Notes: generated by a model not told the origin, from the sequence alone. DNA of 42,360 nt from an uncultured Nitrospiraceae bacterium (GCA_947085205.1 CAMTVO010000047.1:1-42360); one strand, 5' to 3'. Positions 10,339 to 42,360 are shown, counted from the first letter of the stretch. Translations and numbers: made by a program.

Positions 10339-10650
10339 ATGTTCAGCAGGATAAAAAAAGATTTTGATGAAGGAATAGAAAAAATTAAATGGTTTGCATC
10401 GCTCCTTTCTGAAAGGTTAAGAATAGAGATTACTGTATTCAAGCTGCTTTACAGATCAGAGGAACTGAAAAAACGCAGGAATGAGCTTATGAAAAAAATC
10501 GGCGAAGAGGTTTATGCGATGAGGGGGAAAGAGAAAAATATTTATGCGAATAAAGAAGTCATGAACACAATTAAGGAATTAGAGTCCCTCGAACCTGAAA
10601 TAAAGGAGACGGTTGAAAGGGCGTCGGAGATAAGCAAGATAGTCGCATGA
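10339..10650 (+). CDS. hypothetical coiled-coil protein
   Basis: AGGAGG SD, ATGA overlap with pilD. Confidence 0.8.
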   Translation: MFSRIKKDFDEGIEKIKWFASLLSERLRIEITVFKLLYRSEELKKRRNELMKKIGEEVYAMRGKEKNIYANKEVMNTIKELESLEPEIKETVERASEISKIVA

Positions 10651-11453
10651 CCTATATTGAACCATTATCGTTTATCTTCGGCCTCATAGTCGGCTCTTTT
10701 CTCAATGTCTGCATTTACAGACTTCCGAGGAATATGTCCATTATAAGACCTTCATCAGCATGCCCTTCATGCACTACACCTGTTAAGCCTTGGGACAATA
10801 TACCAATACTCAGTTATATTTTTTTGAAAGGCAAATGCAGGAAGTGCGGTGAAAGGATTTCCATACGCTATCCCGCAGCGGAACTTTTAAACGGCATTCT
10901 ATACTGGTCCGTTTTTACGTTTTTTGGTTTTGGATGGCATCTGCCATTTGTTTTTGCCTTTGTGTCAGCAATGGTTGTGATAACATTCATTGATTTTGAT
11001 TCTCAGATAATACCAGATGCTATTACGCTGCCGGGGATTATTATCGGACTTGCATCAGCTTCTTTTCTGCTTCCAGACCCTTTTCATTATACCCCCCCAA
11101 TCCCCCCCTTAATAAGGGGTGGCGTAGAGGGGATTGTTGGCTTCAAAAATTCTATTGCCGGATTATTCCTTGGAGGCGGACTTTTCTATCTCATCGCCAT
11201 TTTAAGCAGGGGAGGCATGGGAGGCGGAGACATAAAAATGATGGCGATGGTCGGCGCATTCATGGGATGGAAGGCTGTCTTTCTAACAACATTCATAGGA
11301 AGTCTTGCAGGTTCAATGGCAGGAATATTTTTAATGGTTTTTAAAGGAATGGGAAGAAAAACAAAGATACCCTTCGGGCCTTTTCTTGCGTTTGGGGCAG
11401 TCATAACGCTCTTTTACGGTGGCAAGATACTGAGATGGTATTTAGGGATGTAA
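10647..11453 (+). CDS. pilD: prepilin peptidase (A24)
   Basis: GSFLNVCIYRLP, CxxC...CxxC, GMGGGDIK, IPFGPFL. Confidence 0.95.
   Translation: MTYIEPLSFIFGLIVGSFLNVCIYRLPRNMSIIRPSSACPSCTTPVKPWDNIPILSYIFLKGKCRKCGERISIRYPAAELLNGILYWSVFTFFGFGWHLPFVFAFVSAMVVITFIDFDSQIIPDAITLPGIIIGLASASFLLPDPFHYTPPIPPLIRGGVEGIVGFKNSIAGLFLGGGLFYLIAILSRGGMGGGDIKMMAMVGAFMGWKAVFLTTFIGSLAGSMAGIFLMVFKGMGRKTKIPFGPFLAFGAVITLFYGGKILRWYLGM
11092..11135. repeat. C-run/G-run palindromic element in frame inside pilD (TPPIPPLIRGGVEGI)
   Basis: CCCCCTT-aat-AAGGGG core; related to the element in queH. Confidence 0.8.
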
Positions 11454-24955: not shown

Positions 24956-25726
24956 CTACTTCGTCGTTACAAAGTTCTGCAGCCCGGTCTGTTTCTGCAG
25001 TTTCACTGCCTGCAATTCCGCATCCTTTCTGTTCTTGAACGACCCCGCTCTTACCCTGAAATACGGGTCGCTCTCGCTTTCGCTTACAACATATGCCTTA
25101 ATTCCTTTTGCCTTCAGACTCTGCTGCAACTGCTCGGCGCCTTCTTTATTGGGGAAGGCTCCGAATTGAATGGCATAAAGTCTCTTTTCGGATACAGTGC
25201 TTTGGGACTTGGCAGTCTTAGTAGATTGCGATGCTTTAGGCAGGACTTTCTTTTTCGACGCCTTGCTTGATTGCTTACCTGTTTTTGTCCCGGCTGTCTT
25301 GACCTCCGGAGAATCTTTATCGGCAGGCTGCCTATTTTCAAACTGCGCATCTTTTCCCTCGGCGATTTCTATCCGCTGGCTTTTGTCCGTCCTGTCTTCA
25401 ACAGCCTTTTGCTCATTAGGAGGCTCTTTTTCCTGCTCCAAAGGCTTTTGAGGTTTAATTTCCTGAGGGAACTCCGGCGGCTTGATAGAAGGCGCTATGG
25501 GTGTATTTCCGGCAGCAGGTTCGAGAACCTTTTTATCCTCCGGCGGTATGTGCGGCTTTTGTTCTGCAGCGCTTTCCTCTTTTTCTGTCTGCGACACATC
25601 GCCGCCTTTATAGCCCCAGAAATAGCCGAGGCCGAAACTGAGCAAGGTAATGACAATAGCGCCTATAACCACTGTGCTCCTTCCGAGGAGCAAAATGGAA
25701 GACCTCTCTGGACCCCTAACCCTCAT
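24956..25726 (-). CDS. SPOR domain cell division protein (FtsN/DedD-like)
   Basis: N-terminal TM, low-complexity linker, 'YAIQFGAF...YFRVRAGSF'. Confidence 0.88.
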   Translation of the reverse strand: MRVRGPERSSILLLGRSTVVIGAIVITLLSFGLGYFWGYKGGDVSQTEKEESAAEQKPHIPPEDKKVLEPAAGNTPIAPSIKPPEFPQEIKPQKPLEQEKEPPNEQKAVEDRTDKSQRIEIAEGKDAQFENRQPADKDSPEVKTAGTKTGKQSSKASKKKVLPKASQSTKTAKSQSTVSEKRLYAIQFGAFPNKEGAEQLQQSLKAKGIKAYVVSESESDPYFRVRAGSFKNRKDAELQAVKLQKQTGLQNFVTTK

Positions 25727-26790
25727 AAGATGAGCATAGCATCGCCATAGGAAAAAAATCTATAACCCATAGCAATAGCCTCCTTATAAGCCTTAAGTAA
25801 TGTTTCAAAACTGCAAAACGCCGATGCGAGCATTAATGGGGTCGAGCAGGGCAGATGAAAATTGGTTATAAGGCTGTCCACTGCCTTGAATTTGTATCCG
25901 GAGTATATGAAGATATCTGTGTATCCCTGTATTAAACCATTTACTTTTTCATGGCCGCTGAACGCTGAAAACTGACCACTGAAATAGCCCTCCAGCGCCC
26001 TCGTTGCAGTCGTTCCGACAGTTATCACCCTTTTGCCGGACTCTTTTGTTTCCTTTATTTTTTCTATAAGTGATGATTTCACCTCAAAGTATTCGGAGTC
26101 CATTTTGTGTCCTTTTACATTCTCAGCCTTTATTGGTTTAAATGTGCCGACGCCTACATGAAGGGTTAATGTTTCGACAATCACTCCTTTGTCTTTTATC
26201 CTTTTGAGAAGCTCTTCTGTGAAATGCAGCCCTGCTGTCGGAGCGGCTATCGAGCCCTGATTCTCTGCATAAACCGTTTGGTATCTTTGCTTATCGCTCT
26301 CGTCAGGCATGCGGTTTATATAAGGCGGCAGAGGCATATGGCCGTATTGCCACAGGATGTCTTTCACCATCGAAGAATCCATACCTATAAATCTTAAAAA
26401 TTTTTTTTGACTGCTGACTGCTGACTGCTGACTGCTGACTTTTTCCGTCCATATCTCTGCCTTAATGCCGTCTCCGGCAGTCACCGTGCCGTTGAACCTT
26501 CCCCTGCACATTATTTCCCATGTGCCATTTTCATCGGTCTCTTTAACAAGCAGGATACCAAGCTTTCCGCCTGTAGATTTTGAAGCGACAACACGTGCAG
26601 GAAAAACTTTTGTATCGTTCAGCAAAATCAAGTCGCCTTCGCTGAGATATTCGGCAATATCAAAAAACCTCCTGTGTTCGATGCCTCCATTCCTGTGGAG
26701 AACAAGAAGCCTCGAATTATCTCTCTTCTCCGATGGTCTTAATGCGATTAAATCTTTTGGGAGGTGAAAATCGAAATCAGCGGTTTTCAT
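25723..26790 (-). CDS. queA: SAM:tRNA ribosyltransferase-isomerase
   Basis: 'FDFHLP', 'PLPPYI', 'AAPTAGLHF', 'TNFHLP', 'FFSYGDAM'. Confidence 0.97.
   Translation of the reverse strand: MKTADFDFHLPKDLIALRPSEKRDNSRLLVLHRNGGIEHRRFFDIAEYLSEGDLILLNDTKVFPARVVASKSTGGKLGILLVKETDENGTWEIMCRGRFNGTVTAGDGIKAEIWTEKVSSQQSAVSSQKKFLRFIGMDSSMVKDILWQYGHMPLPPYINRMPDESDKQRYQTVYAENQGSIAAPTAGLHFTEELLKRIKDKGVIVETLTLHVGVGTFKPIKAENVKGHKMDSEYFEVKSSLIEKIKETKESGKRVITVGTTATRALEGYFSGQFSAFSGHEKVNGLIQGYTDIFIYSGYKFKAVDSLITNFHLPCSTPLMLASAFCSFETLLKAYKEAIAMGYRFFSYGDAMLIL
25957..25984. repeat. degenerate heptamer array within queA
   Basis: GCTGAAC GCTGAAA ACTGACC ACTGAAA. Confidence 0.7.
26408..26440. repeat. perfect TGACTGC x4.7 array within queA
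   Basis: exact tandem 7-mers encoding VSSQQSAVSSQ. Confidence 0.92.
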
Positions 26791-27878: not shown

Positions 27879-28460
27879 CTATAATCCATGCCGCTCCATT
27901 TCCGAATATATGCAGCCGCAATATTTCTGCCTGTAAAGCCCCAGTTCCTTTGACATCCTCCGGCCTTCATTAAACCCTTTCCTGAAATCCTCAAAGTAAA
28001 ACTCAACAGAATGCCTGTCCTGCATCATTCTTCCTATATCTATAATCATATCAAATTTTTGATAAGGACTCACCAGTAAAGATGTGGTAAATGCATCGGC
28101 ATTAATCTCTTTGGCCTTTTTAGCGGCCTCTTCCAATCTGACCTTATAGCAGTATTCGCATCTGTTTTCTTCGTTTCCGACGACATTCTTCAGGTATTCT
28201 TTCAATCCGTAATAATCGACATATTCAATCCGAAAATCCCCCCTCCCCCCTTTTACTAAAAGGGGGTTAGGGGGGATTATATTCTCGTTGTTCCACATGC
28301 TCTCAAGCTTCCTGACAGCATTCAGCCTGTTTTTATATTCGGCGTAAGGATGGATATTCGGATTAAACCAGAGGCCTTTCACATCGATACCCCTCTGCTT
28401 GATAACAGTCAAAGGATATAAAGCACAATTGGCGCAGCATATATGCATGAGAAGCTTCAT
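27879..28460 (-). CDS. queH: epoxyqueuosine reductase QueH
   Basis: HICCANC, NPNIHP..EY, C..CY..RL, YRQKYCGC. Confidence 0.95.
   Translation of the reverse strand: MKLLMHICCANCALYPLTVIKQRGIDVKGLWFNPNIHPYAEYKNRLNAVRKLESMWNNENIIPPNPLLVKGGRGDFRIEYVDYYGLKEYLKNVVGNEENRCEYCYKVRLEEAAKKAKEINADAFTTSLLVSPYQKFDMIIDIGRMMQDRHSVEFYFEDFRKGFNEGRRMSKELGLYRQKYCGCIYSEMERHGL
28235..28278. repeat. C-run/G-run palindromic element in frame inside queH (IPPNPLLVKGGRGDF)
   Basis: AATCCCCCCT...CCCCCTTTT-act-AAAAGGGGG...AGGGGGGATT. Confidence 0.88.
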
Positions 28461-29675: not shown

Positions 29676-30497
29676 TCATGTCTCCTGTCGCTCTCTTATC
29701 TGAGCAACTGTTTCTGCTATAACATCTAATATATCATTCATTGTTCCTTTACTACCTCCAAGGAAGTCCCATAATTCACTCGATAGTAATACTTCATTGG
29801 AAGCAAAGAACTTTTTAAATTCAATCAGATAATTAAAAAATCTTTCCTTGTCATATCCGGTAGACTTTTCCGCTGTCGGATCAAAAGGAAAGCCAATAAA
29901 AAATTTAATATCTTTATTCGGATGCAAACATTTGAGTGCGGCTTTGCCATATAATATTTTTTGTTTTTCACCACGACCTTCACCAGAATTTGGTCTCACA
30001 GATTTCAATTCTATGGCTACGATTTCATTTTCTTTCTCAATATAAGTATCAACAGTAAATTCTAAAGAATCAACTTCCTGATCTGTATCAGGATAGTTAA
30101 AAATTAATTCATTTTCTCTATTCAAATCTGGCAAATAAGTGCCTGCTTTTAAATCACGTATTATATTCTCTATCTGCGAAGCTTGTGTTGTTTTTACCTT
30201 CAATTTGTATGCTCCAGTAAATTTACGTTTATAACCGCCCGATAGGATATGAGAAATATTTTCAAAACCAGTACCTATAGAGGTATTTAACCCATGAAGC
30301 CAACTTGCTATAGCTATTAGATAAGGCATTTGTATATTCAATGGTCCAAGACGCTCTTTAAAACACTCCAGAAATGCCTTATGAAATGGAGCATTACGAA
30401 TTTGTGCACCATGTTCCGGGAAATTATCAATTCGCCTTAATAAAATGTCTTTAACGACTTCGCTAATTCTATTTTTTTGATCTTGCGTCAATGGCAT
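29676..30497 (-). CDS. type II restriction endonuclease, TdeIII/MjaII-like (PD-(D/E)xK)
   Basis: 'APFH..FL', 'LNTSIGTGFE', 'VDTY...IELKSVRPN'; adjacent to an MTase. Confidence 0.82.
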   Translation of the reverse strand: MPLTQDQKNRISEVVKDILLRRIDNFPEHGAQIRNAPFHKAFLECFKERLGPLNIQMPYLIAIASWLHGLNTSIGTGFENISHILSGGYKRKFTGAYKLKVKTTQASQIENIIRDLKAGTYLPDLNRENELIFNYPDTDQEVDSLEFTVDTYIEKENEIVAIELKSVRPNSGEGRGEKQKILYGKAALKCLHPNKDIKFFIGFPFDPTAEKSTGYDKERFFNYLIEFKKFFASNEVLLSSELWDFLGGSKGTMNDILDVIAETVAQIRERQET

Positions 30498-30501
30498 AAG
30501 T

Positions 30502-32091
30502 TTATTTCTCTTTTAAATGAAAAATAATTTCTGAATACGCGCCTTTATCTTTTTCAGTGCGATTTAAAACTGGCCTTTTATACCGGTTTATAATCTGCAT
30601 TCCCGCTTTTTCAGCAATCGTTGGATACATATTGTATTTGTCGTTGGCAACAAGGAAAATATCGTAATCATCAACTAAATACTGCTTGCAGTTATTGAGA
30701 ACAGCGGTTATACCTTCTATATAACTTTGCCTTGCTTCCAGTCCTTGCCCTTTGAAAAGCGGTCCTATTTCCAAATCGTCTTGCCGTTTGAAACCAAAAA
30801 GGTCGTATGCGTAAGCGTGCTGCTCATGGTAGTCAATTAAACCGACATAAGGCGGTGATGAAAAAATGCCTTTAATTTTTTGTTTCCACGCCAGTTCTGC
30901 AAAAGCAGAGTTTTTCTTTTCAAGTTCTCTGAAAATATCGATGGTCCTGCTGTCCCCGGTCAAACAGGTTTGAAATGTATTTGTTCTTAGTTTGTCAAAT
31001 TGCTTAAGACGATTTATAGTGTCTTTAGAATATGCTTCCCACCATTTGAGAATTGAAAAAAGCGGCTTACAGACTTTGCCGTGTTTTGCGCAATAATAGG
31101 TCGCTGTTATAGGTTCTTTAAGCGTCGCTAAATCTGCATGTGTGGTAGCCCGGCATGAACGGATAGTCCTGCTCAATATTATGCTTATAATTTTTTTAGT
31201 ATCTGCATTTTTTATTTTCTTTATTTCGTCAAATACAAATTGAATTTCATCTCTTATGTGTTGCGAATACCATTTATCAAGAAAATTATCGGCCTTATCC
31301 TGACGAAGTTTAATATTATACTGTTTTACAAGTTTTTCATATGTAGGCAAAAACTCCTTTGCTTTTTCTTCTCCATATATATCCTCATTAATCTCTCCTC
31401 GCTTAACCTTGTATTTATATTCTGGGACAGGGAAATATTTATTATTAAAAACATAAAGCGCCTCTAAAAGTTTCCCCTCAAACTCTATGGTATGCGAGTT
31501 TGTTAAAAATTGCTTCAATGCTTTTGTTATCCGGCTGATTTCAGCCTGCACATCAATCAAATTGTATTTAGTAACCTTACATTCTCCTATAAGAGTATTA
31601 AAGGCAGAAACATCAATGCCAATAGCGTGCATGCCAAGTTCACAGGCTTGCACCAACATTGTTCCGCTTCCTGAAAACGGGTCAAGCGCTATGTCCCCTT
31701 TATTAAAATAAACCTCTTTTTTAAAATTATCAGTATGGCCGTCAAGAAAATACTCCGCGAGTTGAGGAATAAATTTCCCCTTGTAAGGATGCAGTCTATG
31801 AACATGCTTTGTTGTTTCAGCTTCCTTATATTGGTCAAAGGATAGAGCCCAGTTTAGGTCATCGCCAAGACGGTCTTTCCATGAAACTTCCCGTTTGCCA
31901 TTATAAGACTTGTAGTAGCTTATTAGCTCTTTTTTTGAGACTTGTGTTGTACCGTTGTATCCAATTTTTTTGACGCGACCGTATTGGATAAGATAGGAGA
32001 TATTAGAGGTTGTCACAGTTTTTCCTAAATGTTGTGTCGCCCATTCGCTGGCTTCTTTTATGCTTAACAAATCAATCATAATCTTTTCCAT
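30502..32091 (-). CDS. amino (probably N4-cytosine) DNA methyltransferase with N-terminal HTH-like region
   Basis: 'HPYKGKFIPQL', motif I DPFSGSGT, motif IV SPPY near the C-terminus (alpha order). Confidence 0.9.
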   Translation of the reverse strand: MEKIMIDLLSIKEASEWATQHLGKTVTTSNISYLIQYGRVKKIGYNGTTQVSKKELISYYKSYNGKREVSWKDRLGDDLNWALSFDQYKEAETTKHVHRLHPYKGKFIPQLAEYFLDGHTDNFKKEVYFNKGDIALDPFSGSGTMLVQACELGMHAIGIDVSAFNTLIGECKVTKYNLIDVQAEISRITKALKQFLTNSHTIEFEGKLLEALYVFNNKYFPVPEYKYKVKRGEINEDIYGEEKAKEFLPTYEKLVKQYNIKLRQDKADNFLDKWYSQHIRDEIQFVFDEIKKIKNADTKKIISIILSRTIRSCRATTHADLATLKEPITATYYCAKHGKVCKPLFSILKWWEAYSKDTINRLKQFDKLRTNTFQTCLTGDSRTIDIFRELEKKNSAFAELAWKQKIKGIFSSPPYVGLIDYHEQHAYAYDLFGFKRQDDLEIGPLFKGQGLEARQSYIEGITAVLNNCKQYLVDDYDIFLVANDKYNMYPTIAEKAGMQIINRYKRPVLNRTEKDKGAYSEIIFHLKEK

Positions 32092-36888: not shown

Positions 36889-37596
36889 TCATACAATCCC
36901 TATAAATCCGCATTGTCTGCCTGTAGTCCCTTTTGCATACCTGTACGAGTAGTATTTTTCAGGAAGGCAAAAAGTGCATTCATCCGACATCCATACATGT
37001 TCCGGCTTGACGCCGGAAGAAAGCGCTTGATATTTATTTGCAGTCGGTAAATCGAGACAGTATTTTTCACCTTTTTTAATTATGTAATCTTTTGAACTCC
37101 GAACGGCTCGACCGATCTCGCCGAAGTCTCCGAACTCTAAACTCGTCACTTTCTCAACTGCTTCTATTACTTCATAGCCTACGCCGTAACAGCACCACTT
37201 TATGGCAGGGCCTATGGCAATAAATATATCAGAAGGCGACGAATAAAATCTGTCTGTCATTGCATGTATCGTCTTTTTCAAAATCTCCGCCGCCGTCCCC
37301 CTCCAGCCCGCATGAACTGCGCCTGCAACTCCCTTTTTGATATCGTACAAAAGAATAGGAACGCAGTCCGCGGTCTGCACGCCTATCACGACATTTCTTC
37401 TATTCGTAACGACGGCATCCGCTATCTTAGGTTCGAGGTCATAATCAAGTATCAAAACTTTATCTGTATGCTTCTGGATGGGAAGATAGATTTTATGGGG
37501 CGGGCCGAACTCATAACTCTGTAATGCCTTTGTTGTAAAAAAGGCCTTTACCTCAGAGCCGGAGAAGTTAGGGGGAATAACTATATGAGGGGTCAT
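36889..37596 (-). CDS. pgeF: PgeF/YfiH-family purine nucleoside phosphorylase / peptidoglycan editing factor
   Basis: 'Q.H', 'TADCVP', 'HAGWRG', 'GPAI..CCY', 'YSYR'. Confidence 0.93.
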   Translation of the reverse strand: MTPHIVIPPNFSGSEVKAFFTTKALQSYEFGPPHKIYLPIQKHTDKVLILDYDLEPKIADAVVTNRRNVVIGVQTADCVPILLYDIKKGVAGAVHAGWRGTAAEILKKTIHAMTDRFYSSPSDIFIAIGPAIKWCCYGVGYEVIEAVEKVTSLEFGDFGEIGRAVRSSKDYIIKKGEKYCLDLPTANKYQALSSGVKPEHVWMSDECTFCLPEKYYSYRYAKGTTGRQCGFIGIV

Positions 37597-37602
37597 AACA
37601 TC

Positions 37603-39870
37603 CTAACCTGACATCGCATCCTCGACCTTGCTCAACAACTCTGTGTGCTGAAAGGGCTTCTGCAAAAAACCGGCGGCCCCGGACTCGAAAAGCTCGTAAA
37701 AATACTGCTCTTCGCCGTATCCGCTGCAGATAAGCACTTTTGCATCAGGCTTTATTGTCCTTATCTCTTTAAATGCCTGTCTTCCGCCTTTCTCTGGCAT
37801 TACCATATCGAGTATTACAAGGTCGATATTGTCCTTCTTCTCATTAAATATACGCACCCCTTCGTTCCCATGAATGGCAAGGAGCACCTCATAGTCGTAC
37901 GCCTCAAGGATATCCTTCCCCAATTCCCTCATCACTTCCTCGTCATCAATGATAAGGACAGTCCCTTTTTTTGGTCTTTCCTTCATAACCGTATCCCTCC
38001 TTTTTTCTTGCACCTTCCCTTCTGCCTTAGGCAGATATAAGCGTACAGTGGTGCCAAGACCCGGCTCTGAATAAACATTGATATAACCTCCATGATTTTT
38101 GATTATGCCGTAAACCATAGCAAGACCTAAACCCGTGCCCTTGCCGATGTCTTTTGTAGTATAGAAAGGCTCGAACATCTTCTTTTTCATCTCCGGAGTC
38201 ATTCCTATTCCGGTATCCGTAACGCTGACACGCACATATTCTCCCGGCGGCATCTGGAAGAAATCGACAACCTTTTTATCATGAAGCAGATAGAACTTTG
38301 TCTTTATATACAGCCTTCCTCCTTCCGGCATTGCATCCCTCGCATTTATGCAGAGATTCATTATTGCCTGATAAAGCTGATTGCTGTCGCCTTCCACAGG
38401 AGGCAGGTTCTCTTCCGTATCAACGACTATCGTTATACTCCTGTCAAATGTCTCGCGTAAAAATGAAGAAAGCTCTTTCACAAGGTCGTTAATCGAGAGC
38501 TTCGTCATCATGTATTTGCCTTTCCTCGCAAAGCCTAACAACTGCTGCGTAAGACCTGTAGCCCTCGATGCCGACTTTTCTATGATGTCTATGTATCTGT
38601 ACTTCTTATCCGTCTCCGGAAACATGCCTTTCAGCAACGATGCATAGCCCAAGACGCCGGTCAAAATATTATTGAAGTCATGGGCGATTCCGCCTGCAAG
38701 CATCCCGAGGCTGTCTAATTTCTGTGTCTGAACAAGGGTCTCCTCAAGCCTCTTCTTCTCTGTTATATCCACAAAATAGCCGTCAAAACCCGTAACGTTA
38801 CCCTGTTCATCAAACTCAGGGTATACGCTCATAATTACAATGATCTCGTTTCCATCACTGCCCATAATCCTCTCCTCAGAATTCTTCAATCCCCTGGATA
38901 TTGCCTTCTGAAGCCTGAGCCCTTCCATGTCGGATGAAAACAATCCGCAAAATCTATTTGCCCTGCCGCAGAGTTCATTGAATTTCCTGTTGGTCTCAAT
39001 TATATTGCCGTCTTTGTCCAATCTGAAAATAGCATGCTCAACCCTCTCAAAAAGGTCTCTTATCTTTTTTTCGGATCCGATGAGTTTTGTCTCTCTATCC
39101 CTTATTGCATTTATCATCCTGTTGAACTCTTCAGCAAGGATGCCGGCTTCGTCCATAGAGGAGACCTTTATCTCCGCCGGATACTCTCCCTTTCGGAGAT
39201 TCTTTGCCGCATCGGAAAGCAGGACGAGCGGCCTGGTGGCTATTGTGAATAGGGCATAAACAAGGATGCTGCTTAAAGTAGTAAAAACTATTGCAAGCGT
39301 CAACCCCTTGAAGATTATCTCCTTTTGCGCCTTTATCATGGCTGCTTTTGAATAACCTATCCTTACCCATCCAATATTCTTTTTGACCTTTTCAGCCTTG
39401 TCTGTTTCCTGAAATATGCCGATATCCGCCCTTTCCATGACAATAAAGACAGGGGCGTAAAGGTCAAAATAATCTTTTTCTTCAAAGGTAGATGGATGTG
39501 ATTCTTCTGATAGGCTCCGGGGTGTTGAGATGATACTCCCCTCCTTCGCAAGGAGATTCATCCTATTATCATAAAAGGCGACAAAAGAGACATCTGGAAC
39601 ACCCTTAAGCGTTGAGAGCGCATTTCTCATGAGTTCAGGATTCCCAGAGAGGATGGGAAGTTCCGCTATTCTCGAGGCGGGGTGCGCTAAAACATCTGCC
39701 TTCTTTTTAATCTCTTCCTTCATGATGGCCCTTCCTGTCCTCACCGAATCATATGTGTATACTAAAGATGCGATAACCAGCATGAAGACAGCAACACAAA
39801 TGGCCTTTCTTCTGAAGGTGGTGCCATGTCTGTGGTACAATTTCTTTATAAATTCTATAATTCGTTTCAT
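37603..39870 (-). CDS. membrane hybrid sensor histidine kinase (periplasmic domain-HAMP-PAS-HisKA-HATPase-REC)
   Basis: two TMs, 'GIAHDFNN', 'NLCINARDAM', 'GTGLGL', C-terminal 'IDDE...LDMVMP...KPF'. Confidence 0.95.
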   Translation of the reverse strand: MKRIIEFIKKLYHRHGTTFRRKAICVAVFMLVIASLVYTYDSVRTGRAIMKEEIKKKADVLAHPASRIAELPILSGNPELMRNALSTLKGVPDVSFVAFYDNRMNLLAKEGSIISTPRSLSEESHPSTFEEKDYFDLYAPVFIVMERADIGIFQETDKAEKVKKNIGWVRIGYSKAAMIKAQKEIIFKGLTLAIVFTTLSSILVYALFTIATRPLVLLSDAAKNLRKGEYPAEIKVSSMDEAGILAEEFNRMINAIRDRETKLIGSEKKIRDLFERVEHAIFRLDKDGNIIETNRKFNELCGRANRFCGLFSSDMEGLRLQKAISRGLKNSEERIMGSDGNEIIVIMSVYPEFDEQGNVTGFDGYFVDITEKKRLEETLVQTQKLDSLGMLAGGIAHDFNNILTGVLGYASLLKGMFPETDKKYRYIDIIEKSASRATGLTQQLLGFARKGKYMMTKLSINDLVKELSSFLRETFDRSITIVVDTEENLPPVEGDSNQLYQAIMNLCINARDAMPEGGRLYIKTKFYLLHDKKVVDFFQMPPGEYVRVSVTDTGIGMTPEMKKKMFEPFYTTKDIGKGTGLGLAMVYGIIKNHGGYINVYSEPGLGTTVRLYLPKAEGKVQEKRRDTVMKERPKKGTVLIIDDEEVMRELGKDILEAYDYEVLLAIHGNEGVRIFNEKKDNIDLVILDMVMPEKGGRQAFKEIRTIKPDAKVLICSGYGEEQYFYELFESGAAGFLQKPFQHTELLSKVEDAMSG

Positions 39871-40781
39871 GGATACACCCTTTTGGCCTTTCTTAAAAGC
39901 TCAACAGGAATGTTAATGCCCATCTTCTTTGCTGTATCGGTATTTATATACAGTTCAAATTTCCGGGACGGCGATGGAGGAACCATCCCAATATCTATCC
40001 CCTTTATTGCGTCAGAGGCCCTTTCCCCTAACTGTCTTCCAACGCTTACCGGTTCAAACACCAGTGCAAGGAGCGCGCCCTGCTTGACATGCCTCTCCGA
40101 GATGCCGAGTATCGGAATATTTTTCCTGAACGATGTCAGAAGCACCTCTTCCAATGCAGTGGCTGTTAAGAGTCCGACATCCGGCAGAAGCAGAATAGCA
40201 CCGTCTGAATCAACCCGCTTGACAGCGCTCACGAACTCAAATGAGCTTCTTACGCTGTAGGCTAAAACCTGCGGATTGGCAGTCCCATCCAGTATCTTCA
40301 TCAAATCATGACTGCCGATGACCGCTATCCGCCTGATTGACGGCAAGTAACCCTTAACAATGTCGACATATTCTCTCACAGGCGTGGCCATATAAACGCC
40401 TGTCGTGTTCGGCCTGTCTATCTCCGGGGGTGTTATGACAAGGTCATAAATCACGGCAATGGATGGCGGAAGCTTAAGTGCTTCCTCCAGGGCTTCCCTC
40501 CCCAGCGCTATGACAACACGCGCTTCCTCCTTTGCCGCAACTCCCCTGAGCCTGCCTTTGATGTCTGACGGCGAATATATCTTTACCGGAGAATCCAAAG
40601 TCTCCTTTATGCCCTTAATGATTTCATTTACCGGCTTGAGTTCCGTATCCCCGACAACTATCACATCCGCGGAATGACATGGGGATGTATAAAATAAAAT
40701 GATTAGTGTGAAAAGCAGAAGAAAAACTTTCTTTTTATTCGCCCTGTAAGTTTCGATGTTATTAAGTATAGACGCTATCAA
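39867..40781 (-). CDS. ABC_sub_bind-like periplasmic ligand-binding protein
   Basis: signal peptide, 'LLLPD', 'HVKQGALLA', 'LYINTDTAKKMGINIP'; probable TTG start with GAGGA SD; ATGA overlap with the kinase. Confidence 0.85.
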   Translation of the reverse strand: MIASILNNIETYRANKKKVFLLLFTLIILFYTSPCHSADVIVVGDTELKPVNEIIKGIKETLDSPVKIYSPSDIKGRLRGVAAKEEARVVIALGREALEEALKLPPSIAVIYDLVITPPEIDRPNTTGVYMATPVREYVDIVKGYLPSIRRIAVIGSHDLMKILDGTANPQVLAYSVRSSFEFVSAVKRVDSDGAILLLPDVGLLTATALEEVLLTSFRKNIPILGISERHVKQGALLALVFEPVSVGRQLGERASDAIKGIDIGMVPPSPSRKFELYINTDTAKKMGINIPVELLRKAKRVYP

Positions 40782-42360
40782 GTGTTTTAATCCTCGAATG
40801 AATCGGCGGGACTTCCTCCGGGTCAATAATTACATCCAGCACAGTGGGAACCCCTGAAGATATTATATCATTTATCATTTTCCTGTTTATTTCTCCCGGC
40901 TTTGTAATTCTTATCCCCCTTGCGCCAAGTCCCTCTGCAATCTTAACAAAATCGACCTGTTTGAACCTTGATGGAAAACCTTCAGGGCTGGATAGAAGCT
41001 TCCATCCATGATAGACCATACCATGCATGGCATTGTTCATTATAACCCATATAACCGGGATGTTGTAATTAACTGCTGTTGCGACCTCCATGCCGTTCAT
41101 CAAAAATGCGCCGTCGCCAACTATGGCAACAACAGGCCTGTCGGGGGCAGCGAGTTTTGCGCCGATGGGTGCAGCTACACCAAATCCCATAGAGGCAAAG
41201 CCGAGACCGACATAAAACGAATACGGTATCGCATTATCAATATAACGTATCGCCCATGCCATGCTATTACCGTTATCTGCAAAATAAATTGCATTTTCAG
41301 GAATACTATCCATAAGGTCCTTCATTAATCTCTGCGGCTTATAGGGCATCCTGCTTGATTTCATTTCTTTAGTAGTTGGTGCAAATCTTTCCCTTAGTTT
41401 TTTTATTTCTTTCTGCCTATTACCTCCAATCATCTTTTCCCCTCCCAACTGCCGCCTTAGCTCATAGATAAGCTCTCGTAAAACAATCCTTGCATCTCCT
41501 GTAATTCCAGCAGTCACAGGATAGTTTTTACCGATTTCGTCAGGGTCTATATCAAGCTGAATTTTTGCTACACTTGGAAGAAGCCTCTCATCCCAACCCG
41601 ATGTCATCCATTCATTAAAACTCGTGCCTATGGCGAGCATAACATCTACATCTTTCTCAATAATATATTCCTTTGCTATCGGTGAACCCGCAAATCCCAG
41701 AACACCCAGAGAAAGAGAATGAAACTCATTAAGAATACCCTTCCCTTTCTGTGATGTGGCAACGGGAATTTCCATCATTTCTGCAAGTTCTAAAAGTTCT
41801 TTATCAGCCCTTGAAAGCACCGTTCCCCATCCTGCTATCATCACTGGTCTTTTTGCACTAAGAAGAAGTCTTGCTGCCTTTTTCACCCCTTCTCTATCAA
41901 AAACCGCCGCCTGTCCAATAGAAATTCTTCCGCCTTTATACGAAACTTCCCGCTTCATTATGTCTGTAGGCAGGTTCAGGTGAACAGGTCCGGTTCTTCC
42001 TGTCAATGCTGTCCTTAATGCCCTTGAAACCATTTCCTGTGTCTTCTTTTCATTTATTATCATATCGCTGTATTTTGTAATGCTTCTGAACATGTCAACT
42101 ATGCTCAACCACTCGCTTGTGAATTCTTGAACAGCGCCTTTACCAAATACAGATGTGGCAACCTGGCCGGTAAGAGCAAGAACGGGTATGGAATCCGCAT
42201 AGGAAGATGCAATGCTTGTTATAAGATTGGTAGCGCCAGGGCCTGATGTCCCGCAGCAAACTCCTATTTTACCGCTCAGCCTTGCATATCCGTCTGCCAT
42301 AAATGCAGCGCCTTCTTCGTGCTTTGTAACAATTACCTTTATCTTGCTTTTGTAGAGGGC
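40762..42360 (-). CDS. ThDP-dependent enzyme, acetolactate-synthase-like/ScyA-like (5' end beyond the window)
   Basis: 'KHEEGAAFMADGYAR', 'TSGPGATN', ThDP motif 'GDGAFLMNGME...NN'; frame open to the window edge. Confidence 0.92.
   Translation of the reverse strand, partial: ALYKSKIKVIVTKHEEGAAFMADGYARLSGKIGVCCGTSGPGATNLITSIASSYADSIPVLALTGQVATSVFGKGAVQEFTSEWLSIVDMFRSITKYSDMIINEKKTQEMVSRALRTALTGRTGPVHLNLPTDIMKREVSYKGGRISIGQAAVFDREGVKKAARLLLSAKRPVMIAGWGTVLSRADKELLELAEMMEIPVATSQKGKGILNEFHSLSLGVLGFAGSPIAKEYIIEKDVDVMLAIGTSFNEWMTSGWDERLLPSVAKIQLDIDPDEIGKNYPVTAGITGDARIVLRELIYELRRQLGGEKMIGGNRQKEIKKLRERFAPTTKEMKSSRMPYKPQRLMKDLMDSIPENAIYFADNGNSMAWAIRYIDNAIPYSFYVGLGFASMGFGVAAPIGAKLAAPDRPVVAIVGDGAFLMNGMEVATAVNYNIPVIWVIMNNAMHGMVYHGWKLLSSPEGFPSRFKQVDFVKIAEGLGARGIRITKPGEINRKMINDIISSGVPTVLDVIIDPEEVPPIHSRIKTLDSVYT

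Follow-up and report, generated by a model that had tools for sequence, protein, structure and literature searches.

A ThDP-dependent carboligase, a PF04392 periplasmic protein and a hybrid kinase in an uncultured Nitrospiraceae bacterium: candidate part of a TonB receptor-linked self-signalling cassette

The DNA described here is a stretch of 42,360 nucleotides (the window) from an uncultured Nitrospiraceae bacterium (GCA_947085205.1, CAMTVO010000047.1:1-42360). It is the whole of contig C47 in a genome assembly of 1.89 Mb in 65 contigs that is 89.7% complete. The sources of homologues 70-80% identical indicate Nitrospirota, probably Thermodesulfovibrionales. Three genes at its end (37603 to 42360) encode a thiamine diphosphate (ThDP)-dependent carboligase, a periplasmic binding protein and a membrane hybrid histidine kinase. 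They are read as the downstream part of a five-gene cassette, because relatives carry genes for a TonB-dependent receptor and a FabH-like enzyme upstream of them. The enzyme pair would make an acyloin-derived molecule, the receptor would recognise it and the binding protein would relay this to the kinase; the chance that this account is right is put at slightly below even. Ligand specificity appears to follow the barrel of the outer-membrane receptor.

Carriers of the enzyme were counted at an E-value of 1e-110 or better among 401 genomes of the phylum. The distribution is patchy: 10 of the 401 genomes have the enzyme, the window genome included. Eight of the other nine carriers were examined, and all eight encode a TonB-dependent receptor, a periplasmic protein and a kinase nearby (in G195 on two contigs). 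In the ninth, G288, the binding-protein gene lies 65 nt downstream. From nnr to pgeF, genomes G018, G122, G145 and G232 have, in this order, the genes for the receptor, the FabH-like protein (opposite strand), the enzyme, the binding protein and the kinase. G195 has receptor, FabH, enzyme and binding protein on one contig and the kinase on another, and G034 has the receptor and two citrate-synthase-fold genes in place of FabH. The three-gene arrangement is not a matter of chance, because the same order is found in G018, G034, G122, G145, G232 and, over two contigs, G195. An earlier note on the window had treated the trio as one module; its order does recur in these six genomes, but is rare in a wider GTDB set (see below).

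Contig C42 of the window genome begins 66 nt from the end of nnr. Given this position and the order from nnr to pgeF in the relatives, the receptor and FabH genes of the window genome probably lie in the assembly gap between C42 and C47. The earlier note had named FabH-like, TonB receptor, ammonia-lyase and acyl-CoA ligase genes as possible upstream neighbours. The first two are present in close relatives, whereas no open reading frames (ORFs) for the last two were found in their cassettes. Contigs of four sequencing runs confirm the window stretch and overrun its end, two of the public-run contigs by 72 and 229 letters, and do not show the upstream genes. No RNA run is listed for the stretch, which has no bearing on its expression. 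The other TonB receptors of the genome, on contig C31, were rejected as cognate partners: they match piecewise, at 24-36% identity, and their N-termini are generic.

The closed genome G008 belongs to the same genus as four of the carriers. Here 2.9 kb with the FabH and enzyme genes are replaced by about 40 bp, and a frameshift at codon 203 breaks the receptor; binding protein and kinase are intact. Locus L138, which is 99.2% identical, carries the same receptor break. This joint loss links the function of the receptor to the enzymes, as one event.

Trees and counts were made without duplicates and near-duplicates (L034, L084, L138, L157, L169, L172 and L202) and without fragments (receptors below 450 aa, binding proteins below 230 aa, or 200 aa in the kinase-adjacency count, and enzymes below 480 aa). 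In a tree of 67 receptors, all 26 enzyme-linked receptors, from 24 loci in several phyla, fall into one clade of 33 rows (support 99) that has no geopeptide-linked member. Another clade (support 99) holds 18 of the 19 receptors linked to a geopeptide radical-SAM system. The exception is a long-branch second receptor; the other receptor of its locus stands inside the geopeptide clade. In the tree of binding proteins, enzyme and geopeptide labels are intermixed, and the window protein is nested among geopeptide-linked copies. The partial rank correlations (rho, from related pairs) are 0.56 for enzyme with barrel and -0.08 for enzyme with binding protein (19 loci), and 0.75 for receptor peptide with binding protein and -0.12 for barrel with binding protein (45 receptors).

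The receptor peptide is short and helix-like, stands just before the plug domain and a TonB-box-like strand, and follows the adaptor, not the barrel. A motif of the type E-L-L-L-F-[FYW]-E-E-K-D-L was found in 31 of 37 receptors beside close binding proteins, and these belong to both barrel clades; the six receptors without it are truncated, split, variant or unrelated. Of the 23 receptors beside distant binding proteins one has it and some have looser variants, and a divergent Desulfobacterota-type subclade has a peptide motif of its own. Outside the set that defined the motif, 20 of 38 YfiR-type matches were examined: none of the 20 adjacent receptors has the first motif and 14 have one of the S-L-E-E-L type. 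Natural swaps of the parts also occur. The two receptors of L068 belong to different barrel subclades and share one peptide type. L066 has the barrel and tailoring subtype of L033, but another peptide and binding protein, and L124 is a further swap. In G331 a YfiR-type protein and a CHASE8 kinase replace the pair, the receptor motif is S-L-E-E-L, and the enzyme and receptor type are kept.

A complex of the G018 binding protein (81% identical to that of the window) with a 38-residue receptor peptide was modelled. Its score is 0.68 (runs 0.64-0.77), against 0.02 for the best of three controls; this mark is reached by 116 of 157 solved pairs and 2 of 215 mismatched pairs, a calibration that is roughly valid and uses self-made alignments. 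The runs agree in at least 83% of contacts, with a partner predicted local distance difference test (pLDDT) value of at least 54. The central Phe of the peptide is placed in the model against M91, P11, P160, I187, S188 and F202. S188 aligns with A246 of VC_1101 and P160 with P236 of CD0873; both residues are named at the aromatic side-chain pocket in the accessible part of one report (PMC6816091). The modelled cleft is lined with Lys and Arg and faces the acidic peptide. The binding-protein cleft is predicted from this model to hold the N-terminal peptide of the receptor.

The binding protein itself (39867-40781, minus strand) is a transporter-less PF04392 (ABC_sub_bind) periplasmic protein of 304 aa (database gene call P0121), scoring 69.1 bits against a cut-off of 25.9, and a predicted adaptor for the receptor peptide. 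It has an N-terminal hydrophobic signal stretch, GAGG stands 11 nt before the TTG start, and the longest ORF extends to 40826. The model has a pLDDT of 91.9, and the nearest folds are 3lft, 3lkv, 6hnj and 6hni. The earlier note had seen neither ABC permease nor ATPase and had paired the protein with the kinase, and both points hold. No permease or ATPase was found among 24 unlabelled binding-protein neighbours (24 of 31, seven already identified being left out), and a PF02653 permease is absent from a search of the 89.7%-complete assembly. Of 75 close binding proteins, 55 have a kinase gene as the next gene downstream (8 are at contig ends and 5 before a second copy). An ABC importer with a TrpX-type PF04392 protein was rejected, since no permease or ATPase is linked and the score on NF041285 (TrpX) is 54 against a cut-off of 390.

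Relatives of the binding protein are far commoner than the enzyme: 146 of the 401 phylum genomes have a PF04392-like match. Copies more than 50% identical occur in 11 phylum genomes, four of them without the enzyme. Among these four, G380 encodes an MFS protein and a geopeptide radical-SAM maturase that passes the TIGR04280 cut-off. G342 also has an MFS gene, with part of a maturase gene at a contig end. In G370, MtaA-like and corrinoid genes stand two genes further along, and G008 has no such insert. A close-alignment search gave 66 metagenome loci, of which 48 have a kinase, 38 a receptor, 27 a maturase and none the enzyme. Where the sequence before a close binding protein extends for 2 kb or more, as in 37 metagenome loci, there are 32 receptors, 22 geopeptide maturases and no enzyme. 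Geopeptide-linked binding proteins are 50-67% identical to that of the window and several enzyme-linked ones only 21-30%; the predicted cleft residues are the same in both groups. With its labels mixed in the tree and no difference in the predicted cleft residues, the binding protein is unlikely to be product-specific; a chemically specific pocket for a small molecule should not behave in this way. The earlier note had the binding protein sense the product of the enzyme, a claim that finds no support: copies 50-67% identical, with the same cleft, stand beside an unrelated peptide-modifying system or beside no synthase. Binding protein and kinase are a generic module common to differing inserts.

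A few further loci were observed in passing. In the broken receptor (L115:10615-12730 and L138:5865-7980) the N-terminal ORF, of 198 and 134 aa, retains the signal peptide and the adaptor-binding motif; its short product could be exported and bind the adaptor. At L118:11525-16601 an enzyme-type receptor, binding protein and kinase are preceded by genes for a PAS protein, an MtaA-like methyltransferase and a corrinoid protein. At L127:10377-13586 an ORF of 1069 aa without Pfam or NCBIfam match takes the usual receptor position before binding protein and kinase.

The kinase gene (37603-39870, minus strand) overlaps the binding-protein gene by 4 nt (ATGA), and pgeF starts 6 nt past its stop codon. 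The product is a membrane hybrid kinase, as the earlier note had it. It is a histidine kinase of 755 aa with a CckA-like core: two hydrophobic, transmembrane segments (19-37 and 185-204) are followed by HAMP, PAS, HisKA (His397), HATPase and receiver domains. Between the segments lies a single periplasmic PAS-like (sCache-like) domain (about residues 38-184; 39319..39759, minus strand), as judged from the secondary structure of a full-length model that has a low predicted template-modelling score (0.39) and was used for that purpose only. Matches to sCache_4 in two kinase orthologues are weak (E about 1e-3, under cut-off). The similarity of binding proteins correlates with that of the kinase sensor region (partial rho 0.86) far more than with the catalytic core (0.22; 51 pairs). 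Dedicated pairing of the LuxP type was found in both adjacency and covariation, and the periplasmic domain may be the docking site of the binding protein. Compared with the window, the public-run contig X1 has 19 listed differences in the 160-nt block 39563-39724, which encodes this domain, and about eight more over the rest of 4.4 kb. Contig X2 equals the window where it covers the block. An allele exchange is a possible origin of the differences in the sensor region.

The carboligase gene (40762 to >42360, minus strand) overlaps the binding-protein gene by 20 nt, so that the description in the earlier note, three genes on one strand overlapping end to start, is confirmed. Matches to PF02776, PF00205 and PF02775 are over cut-off. 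The gene is cut by the contig end; the 565-aa orthologue of G018 aligns with it from residue 33, and about 32 N-terminal codons are missing. The closest characterised homologues, by sequence comparison, are BbmA and CsmA: best PDB matches of the full-length G018 orthologue are BbmA (E 3e-148), CsmA (6e-91) and, as best acetohydroxyacid synthase (AHAS), a match at 3.5e-77, with profile scores of 612, 414 and 352 bits. The window enzyme keeps the catalytic-Glu motif and the ThDP-binding GDG...NN motif. The AHAS motifs RFDDR and MVRQWQ, both present in 11 of 11 IlvB rows, are SFNEW and MVYHGW in the window enzyme. In a 94-row tree (FastTree; rows do not include BbmA, CsmA, ScyA or CybE) IlvB forms one side of a branch with support 100, and the window enzyme stands outside it.

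Membership of the IlvB family was rejected. On TIGR00118 (IlvB) the window fragment scores 416.7 and three full-length orthologues 450-492, below the cut-off of 538.35; the AHAS motifs are replaced, the tree separates the enzyme, and the ilvB-ilvN pair of the genome stands on contig C24, where the IlvB passes the same model at 870.2. No ilvN or ilvH follows the window enzyme, as the earlier note had seen. Membership of the ScyA family was rejected as well, since on NF035927 (ScyA-related thiamine pyrophosphate enzyme; cut-off 1000) the window enzyme scores 282.9 and the orthologues 314-320. The comparison of the enzyme in the earlier note with acyloin-making enzymes like acetolactate synthase (ALS) is supported by the best solved relatives, and the tree places the enzyme outside IlvB. 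We infer an acyloin-synthase-like enzyme outside IlvB with a chemistry similar to that of the CybE homologues.

The enzyme clade was followed in GTDB, where the best 80 of 587 confirmed stretches were analysed. FabH alone is encoded in 11 of these loci, citrate-synthase-fold proteins alone in 24, both in one and neither in 44; the two kinds are nearly exclusive of each other. A kinase, regulator or partner-switch gene is at most four genes away in 64 of the 80 loci, compared with 275 of 1628 ordinary ORFs of the window genome, a rough control, since the profiles were built from the same loci and kinase density varies between genomes. Signalling genes are most frequent at the position directly upstream (34 of 77), and from the sixth gene onwards their share is 0-12%. 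The tie between this clade and signalling genes is strong.

Variants of the locus were observed within this clade. One enzyme subclade (L075, L077, L079, L081, L087, L089, L095, L099, L100, L107 and L109) goes with STAS and RsbW-like proteins and in some loci with a LytS-type membrane SpoIIE phosphatase, that is, with a partner-switch sensor in place of the kinase; one of the records is titled as an archaeon. The partners of the enzyme in a set from L042-L046 and L067-L105 (Elusimicrobiota, Rokubacteria and Nitrospinota rows) are a binding protein of family 5 and a kinase that is about 700-1100 aa long; an O-methyltransferase and a cupin are often present as well. For this set direct sensing of a small molecule seems more plausible. 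A sulfotransferase, APS kinase or short-chain dehydrogenase gene is added in L037, L038, L040, L041, L048, L057 and L080, which suggests sulfated or reduced products. L036, a record titled Pedobacter, stands beside the Geobacter locus L035 in the trees of enzyme, receptor and binding protein; it is possibly a mis-binned contig.

The proposed course of events is as follows. The ThDP enzyme would join two 2-oxo acids to an alpha-hydroxy-beta-keto acid or acyloin, as its homology suggests. The divergently transcribed FabH-like enzyme might then acylate or cyclise the product in the manner of CybF, a role that could fall to the citrate-synthase-fold pair in other lineages. The covariation suggests that the receptor barrel carries the specificity for the product. 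From the model and the covariation, the cleft in which relatives bind Phe, Tyr or Trp would hold the Phe of the receptor motif, and ligand binding or pulling by TonB would alter the amount of free binding protein. Adjacency and covariation point to the binding protein as the switch of the kinase, acting through the periplasmic domain. A wider proposal is more tentative than the account for the cassette itself: diderm anaerobes might share a modular, hitherto undescribed kind of self-signalling, in which a swappable synthase (for acyloins or butenolides, or a radical-SAM peptide system) is matched by the barrel of the TonB receptor, the adaptor, a repurposed amino-acid-binding protein, clamps the Phe in the N-terminal helix of the receptor and the kinase gives the output. 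New signals would arise by swaps of synthase and barrel, with receptor peptide, adaptor and kinase sensor remaining matched to one another.

Several points weigh against this reading. The enzyme-type receptor clade also holds seven receptors without enzyme (six without insert and one MtaA-linked), and three YfiR-linked receptors with no enzyme within 9 kb score equally high on the enzyme-type profile. Barrel type is therefore not exclusive to the enzyme chemistry; the enzyme-less receptors may be eavesdroppers or bind something else. Of the 80 GTDB loci, only 4 have the genes for enzyme, binding protein and kinase in exactly this order, and other lineages of the enzyme clade have a family-5 binding protein, STAS/RsbW/SpoIIE proteins or a kinase alone, some of them without a TonB receptor. 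Orthologues of the receptor and FabH were not found in the window genome's own assembly, and their presence is deduced from synteny. No cognate phosphotransfer protein or regulator is encoded in the cassettes, and no regulator site was identified. As for method, the correlations use non-independent pairs and carry no p-values, the receptor tree comes from FastTree alone, the close set served to draw up the peptide motif by eye, and the complex is a model of G018 proteins with approximate calibration, not a measurement.

The same relay might instead serve a metal chelator or public good, the receptor reporting the loaded form and not cell density; this is unlikely, yet the best placed of the rivals. 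TonB-dependent receptors typically import metal chelates, and ferric-citrate and pyoverdine surface signalling are the model for a receptor that reports a loaded chelator. The best NCBIfam matches of the G018 receptor are models of heme, B12 and siderophore receptors, all under cut-off, and hydroxy-keto acids and citrate-like products could chelate metals. However, the cassettes encode no inner-membrane importer, and many clade members have sensors but no outer-membrane receptor. No Fur-like box (up to five mismatches to the consensus) stands upstream of receptor, FabH or enzyme in five close loci; one match with five mismatches stands about 210 nt before the enzyme in L033.

In the model of the earlier note, the molecule enters the periplasm and is bound directly by the binding protein, acting as a LuxP-like co-receptor of the kinase. 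The covariation of binding protein and kinase sensor fits this model. So does the literature as far as accessible in part, in which small aromatic amino acids are the ligands of every solved PF04392 protein (PMC10443332; PMC6816091) and small-molecule co-receptors of kinases are well known (PMC8050422). It is nevertheless improbable: the cleft residues do not differ between enzyme-linked and geopeptide-linked copies, controlling for the receptor leaves no correlation of binding protein with enzyme, the cleft is filled by the peptide in the model, and in G331 a YfiR-type protein has taken its place while enzyme and receptor type are kept.

Equally improbable is a relay of receptor, binding protein and kinase that senses an unrelated outside cue and merely controls, or adjoins, the biosynthetic pair. 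Its attraction lies in the frequency of the relay (146 against 10 of 401 genomes), in the 37 metagenome loci with many receptors and geopeptide maturases and no enzyme, and in the enzyme-type receptors without an enzyme. The receptor clade, however, follows the presence of the enzyme across phyla, in L066 and L033 even down to the tailoring subtype; the receptor is broken where the enzymes are lost (G008, L138), and the enzymes are nested between or beside the relay genes. A second ALS or catabolic lyase in an incidental neighbourhood, suggested by the top NCBIfam names of the enzyme and the database labels of its homologues (both acetolactate synthase), is largely refuted and very improbable, as all these scores are under cut-off while the C24 IlvB passes TIGR00118 (870 against 538), the AHAS motifs are absent, the tree separates the enzyme, BbmA is by far the best solved match, the distribution is patchy and signalling neighbours are enriched.

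A scan gave promoters and terminators near chance (16 promoters against 12.0 expected and 9 terminators against 5.0), and a scan for Fur boxes and sigma-54 sites gave no convincing match. Elsewhere in the window, a short stretch inside pgeF (37094-37149) matches many unrelated contigs. Several proteins of the genome have short in-frame inserts, for example segments rich in proline or in Ser and Gln (10647-11453, 25723-26790 and 27879-28460; also in L136). These stretches look like small in-frame repeats in coding genes. A probable DNA methyltransferase and restriction-endonuclease-like pair, judged by eye, lies between ruvA and ruvB (29676-32091).

If the account of the cassette is right, it would provide a mechanism for many uncharacterised operons of TonB receptor, orphan binding protein and kinase, given the binding proteins in 146 of 401 phylum genomes. 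A TonB-dependent receptor would then feed a two-component kinase and not an extracytoplasmic function sigma factor, a PF04392 protein would bind a protein peptide rather than free amino acids, and CybE-type acyloin chemistry would have a part in signalling. The account would also hint at cell-cell signals in uncultured anaerobes of sediment and groundwater (Nitrospirota, Desulfobacterota), for which none were found in the literature search. That search, mostly outside subscription journals and without supplements, gave no account of the cassette, of geopeptide or of a relay of TonB receptor, PF04392 protein and kinase.

The biosynthetic half can be compared with the assembly of furanolides (cyanobacterin, maculalactone, deoxyenhygrolide), in which a ThDP carboligase likewise stands beside a FabH-like enzyme. 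According to the accessible parts of the sources, CybE joins two alpha-keto acids to an acyloin-type product, which the FabH-like CybF then acylates and cyclises (PMC13288894; PMC8777810; PMC12395478). BbmA and CsmA (PDB 8x3x, 8x3z), the best solved matches of the window enzyme, are named there as CybE homologues that form alpha-hydroxy-beta-keto acids (PMC12395478; the spelling 'BpmA' is taken as BbmA). A ThDP enzyme together with a FabH-like synthase was found in the relatives G018, G122, G145, G195, G232 and G046. The Cys-His-Asn triad of the FabH-like protein is intact in the two relatives checked, and the protein matches ordinary FabH-type structures only. The furanolide cluster (CybBCEF) differs in having an ammonia lyase and acyl-CoA ligase part, which is absent between nnr and pgeF in G018, G122, G145 and G232, and unlike CybE/CybF many loci here have a citrate-synthase-fold pair instead of FabH. 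The biosynthetic half would thus work like CybE/CybF without belonging to the furanolide clusters. The accessible parts of the three sources (PMC13288894, PMC8777810, PMC12395478) mention no link of these systems to a receptor or kinase.

The relay has a close parallel in YfiBNR of Pseudomonas aeruginosa, in which an outer-membrane protein sequesters the periplasmic regulator of an inner-membrane sensor, as described in the accessible part of PMC4655355. Both have an outer-membrane protein, a periplasmic adaptor and an inner-membrane HAMP sensor. The nearest folds of YfiR are given in the same source as 3LFT and 3LKV, PF04392 proteins that also match the window binding protein, and a YfiR-type protein replaces the binding protein in G331. 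In YfiBNR the outer partner is an OmpA-like lipoprotein, here it is a ligand-gated TonB-dependent receptor. The present adaptor, a PF04392 protein with two lobes, is predicted to use its ligand cleft, a hybrid kinase gives the output, and the genes have a biosynthetic insert. The relay likely works like the uncharacterised triad of TonB receptor, YfiR-like protein (PF13689) and kinase but is no member of it: the adaptor is PF04392, the window genome has no PF13689 match, and the G018 receptor scores 154 against a cut-off of 645 on NF053590.

In LuxP/LuxQ and TorT/TorS, too, a membrane kinase has a class I periplasmic binding protein as its partner and no transporter takes part, as far as seen in the accessible part of a co-receptor review (PMC8050422), in which the terms 'TonB', 'ABC_sub_bind' and 'YfiR' do not occur. 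Their fold matches are weaker, and their binding protein holds a small molecule, whereas here a peptide of another protein is predicted. VC_1101, SP1069 and CD0873 (PF04392; TrpX, NF041285) have the same fold, and the predicted Phe contacts lie on the same pocket; unlike these proteins, the window protein has no permease or ATPase, a score of 54 against 390 on NF041285 and a cleft lined with Lys and Arg. The geopeptide radical-SAM system (TIGR04280) shares the kinase, the binding protein (50-67% identity) and the N-terminal receptor motif. It differs in its insert, a maturase of ribosomally synthesised and post-translationally modified peptides, often with an MFS protein, and in its barrel, which belongs to another clade and is about 25% identical over a long alignment. 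To these systems the present analysis adds the separation of specificity, in the barrel, from the relay, formed by receptor peptide, PF04392 adaptor and kinase sensor, together with a modelled peptide complex.

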